Source of the DNA: Oscillospiraceae bacterium
GTDB taxonomy: Bacteria; Bacillota; Clostridia; Oscillospirales; Ruminococcaceae
Direction of reading: 5' to 3'
Length of the DNA: 64,000 bases
NCBI GenBank assembly: GCA_017829005.1
Contig: JAGAJF010000148.1
Span: 838-64,837 of the forward strand
The translations under genes and the position numbers were made by a program. Of this stretch, positions 45,944 through 47,172 are shown piece by piece. Below the pieces are notes generated by a model that worked only from the letters and a program-made list of their open reading frames with translations, did not search any database and was not told the DNA's origin. Each line of letters starts with the position of its first letter. The stretch's first letter is position 1.

Positions 45944-46046
45944 TATCAGAATAAATAATTTTTTAGGGGGACGTTTTCGTCTCCCTATTTTTTTGCTTGA
46001 ATTTTTATGCGTTATGTGTTATACTAAAGAAAAGGGAGGCATGGCT

Positions 46047-46886
46047 ATGGGACGTGACGTTGTATCGGCAAAGCTTGATGTGATATTCAAGAAAATTTTT
46101 ACGGAAAACAGGGATATGCTCCACGATTTTATCTCGGCAATTCTTGATATTCCCAGCGAAAAAATTACAGAAATAACCATAACAAATCCCGAGCTTCCGC
46201 CCGAGAGCGCTTTGGGAAAATTCAGCAGGCTTGACCTTAGTTTAAAAGTTGACGACAAGCTTGTGAATGTGGAAATTCAAGTAAAGGAACACGCCGATTA
46301 TCGTGACAGGACGCTATTTTACTGGGCGAAGCTTTACACCTCGGAGCTTAAAAGCGGCGAGGATTACGGCGACCTCAAGCAGACCATTGCAATTAACATC
46401 ATAAATTTCAATATGTTCGGCGGTGAGAACTACCATAATGAAGTTGTGACCACCATCAAGGACACGGGAGAAATTTTCTCGGATAAATTCTCCATTCATT
46501 TCTTTGAACTTAAAAAGATAAGCCGCAAGCCAAACCCCAAAAACAGGAAGGAGCTGTGGCTGCAGTATATCAATGCCGACAAGGAGGAGGAGCTTGCTAT
46601 GATCGAAAATACCAATGTGCCTATAATGCAGAAAGCGGTAAGAGTTATTTATGATATGAGTGAGGACACACGTGTCCGTGAGATAGCACGTATGCGTGAA
46701 AAGGCTCTCCACGACGAGGCTACTTATCTGAGAGAGGCAATGGAAAAGGGAATAGTTCAAGGCAGAGCTGAGGGCAGAGCTGAGGGCATAGCCGAGGGCA
46801 GAGCTGAAAGAGACGATGAGATCATTGCCCGAATGAAAGCAATAGGTTATTCAGACAATGATATTAAGAGTATTTTTGGCTTATGA
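46047..46886 (+). CDS. Rpn-family PD-(D/E)XK nuclease with an internal in-frame start at 46599
   Basis: LDVIFKKIF, RLDL...VNVEIQ, RTLFYWAKLY, GRAEG repeats; AAGGAGGAGGAG precedes internal ATG 46599. Confidence 0.9.
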   Translation: MGRDVVSAKLDVIFKKIFTENRDMLHDFISAILDIPSEKITEITITNPELPPESALGKFSRLDLSLKVDDKLVNVEIQVKEHADYRDRTLFYWAKLYTSELKSGEDYGDLKQTIAINIINFNMFGGENYHNEVVTTIKDTGEIFSDKFSIHFFELKKISRKPNPKNRKELWLQYINADKEEELAMIENTNVPIMQKAVRVIYDMSEDTRVREIARMREKALHDEATYLREAMEKGIVQGRAEGRAEGIAEGRAERDDEIIARMKAIGYSDNDIKSIFGL

Positions 46887-47119
46887 GTGAAGAAAAATTC
46901 AGAGTAATTTACGATACGAGCGAGAAAACGAGAATAAAGGAGCTTGCCCGTATGCGTGAAAAGGCTCTTCACGACGAGGCTACTTATCTGAGAGAGGCAA
47001 TGGAAAAGGGAATAGTTCAAGGCAGAGCCGAGGGTTTTGCTCTTGCAAAGGAAGGTTTTATTGCTAAGCTTAAAGCCAAAGGAATGACCGATTCGGAGAT
47101 TGCGGATTTTCTTGAATAA
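46883..47119 (+). CDS. Stand-alone paralog of the Rpn C-terminal domain (78 aa)
   Basis: ATGA overlap with Rpn; 46949-47034 matches 46689-46774 at 84/86 nt; divergent tail. Confidence 0.8.
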   Translation: MSEEKFRVIYDTSEKTRIKELARMREKALHDEATYLREAMEKGIVQGRAEGFALAKEGFIAKLKAKGMTDSEIADFLE

Positions 47120-47121
47120 CC

Positions 47122-47172
47122 AAAATATCTCCCCTTCATACCATAAAAGACGGTATGAAGGGGAGAATTTTA
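47122..47172. terminator. Bidirectional terminator
   Basis: tctccccttcatacc / ggtatgaaggggaga. Confidence 0.85.

Follow-up and report, generated by a model that had tools for sequence, protein, structure and literature searches.

A putative gene-within-gene Rpn toxin–antitoxin locus with a free-standing copy of its antitoxin domain in an uncultured gut Oscillospiraceae bacterium

Why should a nuclease gene be followed directly by a second copy of its own 3′ end that carries a different tail? This arrangement is found in a 64,000-nucleotide stretch of contig JAGAJF010000148.1 from an Oscillospiraceae bacterium (hereafter the window), and the initial annotation had interpreted it as an Rpn nuclease with an intragenic antitoxin start and a second, separately encoded C-terminal variant, the latter being offered as an extension of the known model. 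Rpn proteins are gene-within-gene toxin–antitoxin antiphage systems in which the small form, RpnS, is translated from an internal site, as shown for E. coli and for a gene of C. difficile, and in which a 4-aa repeat in the long Rpn helix varies among strains (Zhong et al. 2023, PNAS, PMC10400941). The same study describes RpnS as a separate gene as well: ypaA (rpnESs) lies downstream of rpnE and is expressed, rpnCSs occurs in some E. coli strains, and these rpnSs copies arose from the upstream genes and are lost via deletion or when the N-terminal domain becomes fused to the rpnSs region (PMC10400941). Because the downstream rpnSs, its expression, its origin and its loss by deletion or fusion are already on record there, the idea of an extension could not be upheld. 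In K-12, ypaA lies 12 nt after rpnE and corresponds to RpnE residues 244–299, with 75% identity and a 4-aa indel. Orthologous loci place the bacterium in a species of Huintestinicola. The features of the locus in the window are collected in Table 1; for comparison we used 83 related loci, made up of 80 from genome contigs and three paralogues from the bacterium's own genome.

Table 1. Features of the Rpn locus, in positions of the window.
Feature	Position	Strand	Basis or remark
Terminator-like hairpin and T-run after gatB	45964–45994	+	
Promoter-like TTGAAT-17-TG-TATACT (extended −10) of the rpn unit	45997–46025	+	consensus match only
rpnL, 279-aa Rpn-family PD-(D/E)XK nuclease, putative toxin	46047–46886	+	profile matches, invariant residues
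Internal Shine-Dalgarno AAGGAGGAGGAG	46581–46592	+	codons 180/181 GAG family-wide
Predicted rpnS (putative intragenic antitoxin), 95-aa C-terminal product starting in frame at Met185	46599–46886	+	predicted translation
86-nt near-identical repeat, copy 1, helix ARMREKALHDEATYLREAMEKGIVQGRAEG, in rpnL	46689–46774	+	
Four 12-nt repeats encoding GRAE/GRAE/GIAE/GRAE, long helix	46761–46808	+	different repeat numbers in relatives
rpnSs, 78-aa free-standing copy of the C-terminal domain, ending in another tail (type B, ...GFIAKLKAKGMTDSEIADFLE)	46883–47119	+	
AAAGGAG-N9-ATG within rpnSs (Met24, ATG 46952)	46936–46954	+	not conserved
86-nt repeat, copy 2, within rpnSs	46949–47034	+	
20-nt inverted repeat, predicted bidirectional terminator shared with a convergent YitT-family gene, closing the rpnL–rpnSs unit	47123–47171	.	

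The designation of the long gene as an Rpn nuclease proved correct. Its product matches PF12784 (PDDEXK_2) with an E-value of 5e-51 and 174 bits (cut-off 27.4), and it matches the NCBIfam profile TIGR01784, named 'Rpn family recombination-promoting nuclease/putative transposase', with 144 bits against a curated cut-off of 52.1. TIGR01784 also matches the E. coli proteins, namely RpnE with 172 bits and YpaA over profile positions 220–271. An hhalign comparison of the family alignment with the single RpnE sequence was uninformative (probability 4.6%), and it is therefore TIGR01784 that carries the family linkage. Residues D63, E76 and Q78 are invariant among 67 homologues of the long protein, and the E-x-Q motif and the acidic catalytic residues of the nuclease core are intact. 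The AF2 model (pLDDT 80) consists of an alpha/beta nuclease core followed by a helix spanning residues 208–265, and it places D63, E76 and Q78 on the consecutive strands 60–68 and 71–80. The D...E-x-Q pattern is also present in RpnA (SD63, IE82-H-Q84), a correspondence that was matched by eye, the MAFFT alignment being 2 columns off. A sequence search of the PDB with the long protein gave no relevant match, Foldseek against the PDB with its AF2 model gave only weak, non-significant matches of PD-(D/E)XK type (McrC, VC1899, MspJI and XisH), so that no similarity to the RpnA-S crystal structure emerged, and no PADLOC model matched the nuclease. As for the limits of the gene, the start ATG at 46047 has GGGAGG 7 nt 5′ of it, the alternative ATG at 46041 being merely 1 nt away from this Shine-Dalgarno (SD) sequence, and the stop is the TGA at 46884–46886. 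Several related long genes, those of L041, L052, L068, L017, L046, L058 and L074, contain in-frame stops (at codon 41 in L041 and codon 36 in L068). In L041, L052 and L068 the downstream tail genes are intact despite these stops; they may be orphan antitoxin-like genes left after decay of the toxin, or the stops may be errors of metagenome-assembled genomes (MAGs).

An in-frame ATG behind AAGGAGGAGGAG had been proposed as the start of a 95-aa C-terminal product, and this signal is not only present but is kept in relatives even at synonymous sites. The ATG (46599–46601) is codon 185 of rpnL and lies 6 nt 3′ of AAGGAGGAGGAG. An alignment of 81 homologues has Met at residue 185 in 74 of them and Val in 5, and codon 185 is ATG in 71 and GTG in 5 of 80. 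Glu codon 180 is GAG in 73/81 homologues and Glu codon 181 in 79/80; by comparison, the neighbouring Glu184 has a GAG:GAA ratio of 29:27, and the overall share of GAG in these genes is 47%. The mean energy of the anti-SD duplex 5′ of codon 185 is −11.5 kcal/mol, compared with −0.5 kcal/mol 5′ of Met194 and with an in-gene background of −3.2, the first percentile of which is −11.5. These alignments indicate that the internal SD and ATG are under selection in this clade, that is, they give comparative support for an internal ribosome-binding site. In another locus (L086:862-1182) a free-standing copy begins at the equivalent of Met185 (MIENTNVPIM...), the duplicated unit thus including the internal start, which fits Met185 as the natural start of an S form. 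A promoter-like element inside rpnL, CCGACA-16-TG-TATGAT at 46576–46603, matches the consensus at only 9/12 positions and overlaps the internal start. It was set aside, because transcription from it would begin downstream of the ATG at 46599. Internal promoters are present in the E. coli rpn genes.

The locus is flanked by gatB and a YitT-family gene, with no recognisable defence island there. The hairpin after gatB sets the Rpn unit apart from the upstream operon. No terminator lies between the long and the short ORF. The description of the short ORF as a coupled 78-aa gene that repeats the helix with a different tail was confirmed: its ATG overlaps the TGA of rpnL (ATGA), and it has no SD of its own at 46883. 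The 86-nt segments at 46689–46774 and 46949–47034 are identical at 84/86 positions, both differences being synonymous, and they are nested in a 134-nt repeat with 86% identity. At the protein level, the short product shares 64% aa identity over 75 residues with the C-terminal domain of rpnL, and it matches TIGR01784 at profile positions 199–261. Its AF2 model (pLDDT 78) is one long helix (residues 14–65) with a short terminal helix, for which Foldseek against the PDB found nothing. DUF4351 (PF14261) is the annotation name of some stand-alone RpnS genes and is not defining for rpnSs; neither the short ORF nor the 95-aa tail matched PF14261 at E ≤ 1. Homologues in the database are annotated as 'hypothetical protein', without any Pfam domain. 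The number of 12-nt repeats differs among near-identical genes, being 5 in L035, 6 in L041 and 8 in L044. A further internal start proposed within the short gene stood only in part: AAAGGAG-N9-ATG does exist there, with its ATG at 46952 (codon 24) rather than at 46951, but it is not conserved. As most homologues have Leu at this position, a conserved start at Met24 was rejected and the site is probably incidental.

The short gene of the window is one of many. In 27/83 related loci, one or two extra ORFs encoding the C-terminal domain directly follow the nuclease stop; all of these tail genes begin at about residue 198, each with an ATG that precedes 'VIYD' by a few codons, and most start between −8 and +19 nt from the preceding stop, several with GGAG or AGGAG 5–8 nt 5′ of the ATG. 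Since the offset from stop to start and the frame vary over this range among homologues, a fusion of the long and short ORFs by frameshifting or readthrough was rejected. Could the short ORF nevertheless have arisen neutrally, when a 3′ end rich in repeats was duplicated in tandem or recombined unequally, and be a functionless remnant in decay? Individual copies do fall apart. At the orthologous locus of L005 most of the short gene is deleted, its last 14 codons remaining; in L006, a Huintestinicola MAG of another species, the orthologous short gene is frameshifted near its 3′ end; in a 99.8%-identical contig from another sample (L093:151-318, equivalent to window 46883–47119) codon 4 is changed from GAA to TAA; and truncated second and third copies are seen in L010, L012, L051, L068 and C72 of the own genome. 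The lack of an SD before 46883 would also suit a remnant. The deletion, the frameshift and the nonsense codon lead us to regard rpnSs as dispensable and subject to turnover. Against decay of the class as a whole, the tail genes in 27 loci have kept their ATG and open frame, and their between-species dN/dS is 0.06–0.24, which denotes purifying selection and is not the value of about 1 that had been named as the mark of a decaying duplicate. Moreover, rpnSs of the window retains every residue that is invariant (12) or near-invariant (8) in 24 tail genes; in L094, a 96%-identical variant with the same layout, the short gene differs at 1/237 nt as against 11/320 nt just downstream; and the E. coli counterpart YpaA is expressed (PMC10400941). 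Judged by these comparisons, the downstream copy is a member of a class of intact genes under selection, and its being a mere by-product appears improbable.

Related observations concern other copies. Downstream of its premature stop, L093 has a 55-aa ORF that begins at Met24, behind AAAGGAG, Met24 being close in profile position to the internal start of E. coli. The own genome encodes a second Rpn paralogue with 67% aa identity (C72:2050-3243, minus strand); 3 nt after its stop begins a free-standing tail gene that is 88% identical to the paralogue's own tail, and next comes a truncated third copy starting IMYIVIYDMFEI. A third paralogue (C118:39683-41200) has no tail gene and is followed by an ORF resembling the N-terminus of a serine recombinase, for which reason this copy may lie on a mobile element. 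In L057 (3879-4409) a 176-aa ORF behind the Rpn gene combines some 90 aa of unrelated N-terminal sequence with a complete RpnS-like C-terminal domain.

How, then, can a duplicate be almost identical to its source in the helix and differ from it in the tail? Comparison with the L006 orthologues divides the shared region into two parts. In the first 48 nt the two copies of the window, long and short, are identical at 30/48 positions, whereas the long copy matches the L006 long gene at 44/48 and the short copy the L006 short gene at 47/48. Over the next 84 nt the relation is reversed: the two copies of the window agree at 81/84 positions, and each agrees with its own orthologue at just 66–67/84. 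Because their first 48 nt resemble the orthologues more than each other, the long and short copies represent separate old lineages, and the higher identity within the genome than between genomes over the next 84 nt indicates that the interaction helix was homogenised by gene conversion after the duplication. The only contig informative on the direction of conversion is L094, which has 1.7x coverage, so that its four differences are possibly errors.

Tails have also been exchanged among relatives. The tail types at the gatB-adjacent locus are A (...EIIARMKAIGYSDxDIKxIFGL), B (...GFIAKLKAKGMTDSEIADFLE), C (...EIMAQLKAMGLSDNDIRRALGL) and D (...RMRELGYSEDIINEILTK). In the window and in L094, type A is fused to the nuclease and B is free-standing; in L006, A is fused and D free-standing; in L087, the N-domain of which is 94.7% identical in nucleotides to that of the window, B is fused and is followed by free-standing C and then A; and in L088, C is fused and A free-standing. 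L088 equals L087 minus 294 nt and is otherwise identical, and the junction lies inside a 57-nt exact direct repeat, the fused tail being swapped as a result; L087, L088 and L094 are short metagenome contigs, in which repeat-induced misassembly is possible. In a second syntenic group, tail X is fused and Y free in both L035 and L041, and L070, which has an N-terminal frameshift, has Y fused and no free copy; the free copy of L044 is of type X. Mosaics occur in a metagenome protein collection too, such as P0004 (A/D) and P0009, in which a short-type head is joined to tail A. Relatives in which the alternative tail is fused to the nuclease, which had been named as a thing to look for, thus exist (L087 compared with the window, and L070 compared with L035 and L041), and the suggestion that the duplicate serves as a donor cassette or spare antitoxin gains comparative support from the swapped fused and free tails and from the 294-nt deletion between 57-nt repeats.

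Two readings would make more of this exchange than a conventional toxin–antitoxin locus with an additional antitoxin-domain gene does. According to the first, the arrays of tail genes in gut Clostridia would be a dedicated diversification device, in which fused and free tails are exchanged by frequent recombination, which the Rpn nuclease itself might promote, and not by rare accidental homologous recombination. We hold this to be unlikely; if it were true, the affinity between toxin and antitoxin or the specificity of the trigger would be re-tuned under pressure from phages, in a way reminiscent of antigenic-variation cassettes. According to the second, which we rate as more doubtful still, the short ORF would be a silent donor cassette only, an untranslated DNA template for tail change as in pilS-type cassettes. 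Such a cassette would account for tail types that, at one orthologous locus, are fused in some relatives and free in others, for the recent conversion tract that links both copies and for the short ORF having no SD of its own. A start codon and an intact N-terminal head would not be required for it, yet an ATG is placed at or beside the preceding stop in every free copy, several free copies have the good SDs described above, purifying selection spans the whole ORF, and YpaA is translated in E. coli (PMC10400941). Finally, an assembly artefact, an explanation raised at the outset and conceivable for a 163-contig, 2.9-Mb MAG with 12-nt and 86-nt repeats at the locus, can practically be dismissed, since the 86-nt repeat, which is far from the ends of its 75.8-kb contig, is bordered on either side by diverged sequence, the identical layout is present in the L094 assembly, in the other species L006 and in L085, an independently assembled metagenome with 100% identity across the locus, and the pattern recurs in 27 loci.

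We consider it probable, with good confidence, that the locus is an RpnL/RpnS gene-within-gene toxin–antitoxin system of the E. coli type with an additional gene, rpnSs, that encodes the antitoxin domain on its own and corresponds to ypaA. We infer translation of both small products, toxicity, neutralisation and a part in phage defence at this locus, and the system might work as follows. The 279-aa product would be a PD-(D/E)XK nuclease bearing a long C-terminal oligomerisation helix. Ribosomes would also begin at the conserved internal SD and ATG (46599), giving rise to a 95-aa tail-only protein, and this protein would pair with the helix of the long form and hold the latter inactive. The 78-aa gene would be co-transcribed with rpnL, as there is no terminator before 47123, and would probably be translated by re-initiation at the ATGA overlap. 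It would add a second helix-plus-tail protein, with a helix kept near-identical to that of the toxin via gene conversion and with a different tail. Because the copies are direct repeats, homologous recombination between them would occasionally replace the tail fused to the nuclease, and in this way the free copy would double as a reservoir of alternative tails.

The layout described for E. coli in PMC10400941 is found at the locus of the window, which therefore has the same design as rpnE–ypaA. As in rpnE–ypaA and rpnC–rpnCSs, an Rpn-family nuclease gene contains an internal SD and ATG (here predicted). As in rpnE–ypaA, a small gene for the C-terminal domain lies a few nucleotides past the stop and originated locally from the upstream gene; the 4-aa/12-nt repeat varies; relatives have lost the downstream copy by deletion or through its fusion to the N-domain; and the long and short proteins match TIGR01784 at corresponding positions. 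The locus differs from its E. coli counterparts in several respects. It belongs to the PF12784 PDDEXK_2 branch of Gram-positive Oscillospiraceae, PF12784 being without a match in E. coli, and its predicted S form is longer (95 aa), with a start about 36 residues earlier than the E. coli internal translation start. In addition, the free copy in the window starts 10–14 residues after the internal start and not at it, as ypaA does, and here the start and stop codons overlap (ATGA). The free copy also ends in another type of tail rather than in a near copy of the fused one, and relatives array up to three tail types per locus.

The C. difficile Rpn/RpnS pair, which was expressed in E. coli (PMC10400941), is likewise Gram-positive, has an internal ribosome-binding site and start (predicted for the locus in the window) that yield a small C-terminal protein, and likewise varies in its four-aa repeat; a downstream copy like that of the window is not reported for C. 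difficile in the main text of that paper. A looser resemblance exists to pilE/pilS gene conversion and to the orphan CT modules of polymorphic toxins, where behind an expressed gene lie partial copies that have a homologous stretch in common with it and differ in their C-terminal ends, and recombination changes the expressed end. Unlike those systems, the downstream copies considered here have their own start codons and are selected as proteins, and there is no sign of programmed or high-frequency switching, so that the likeness is one of logic only and not of family.

The published Rpn model is left unchanged by this locus, the layout being already known from rpnE–ypaA. What the locus does is to carry the E. 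coli design, with the toxin, the antitoxin inside it and a spare antitoxin gene behind it, to an uncultured gut Oscillospiraceae bacterium and to the PF12784 branch. On the comparative side it adds selection at synonymous sites on the internal start, a conversion tract that matches the helix of the free copy to that of the toxin, and natural variants, all at a single orthologous locus, with tail types A, B and C placed either on the nuclease or free-standing. These tail variants would be good material for studying how tail identity and repeat number tune the neutralisation of Rpn proteins.
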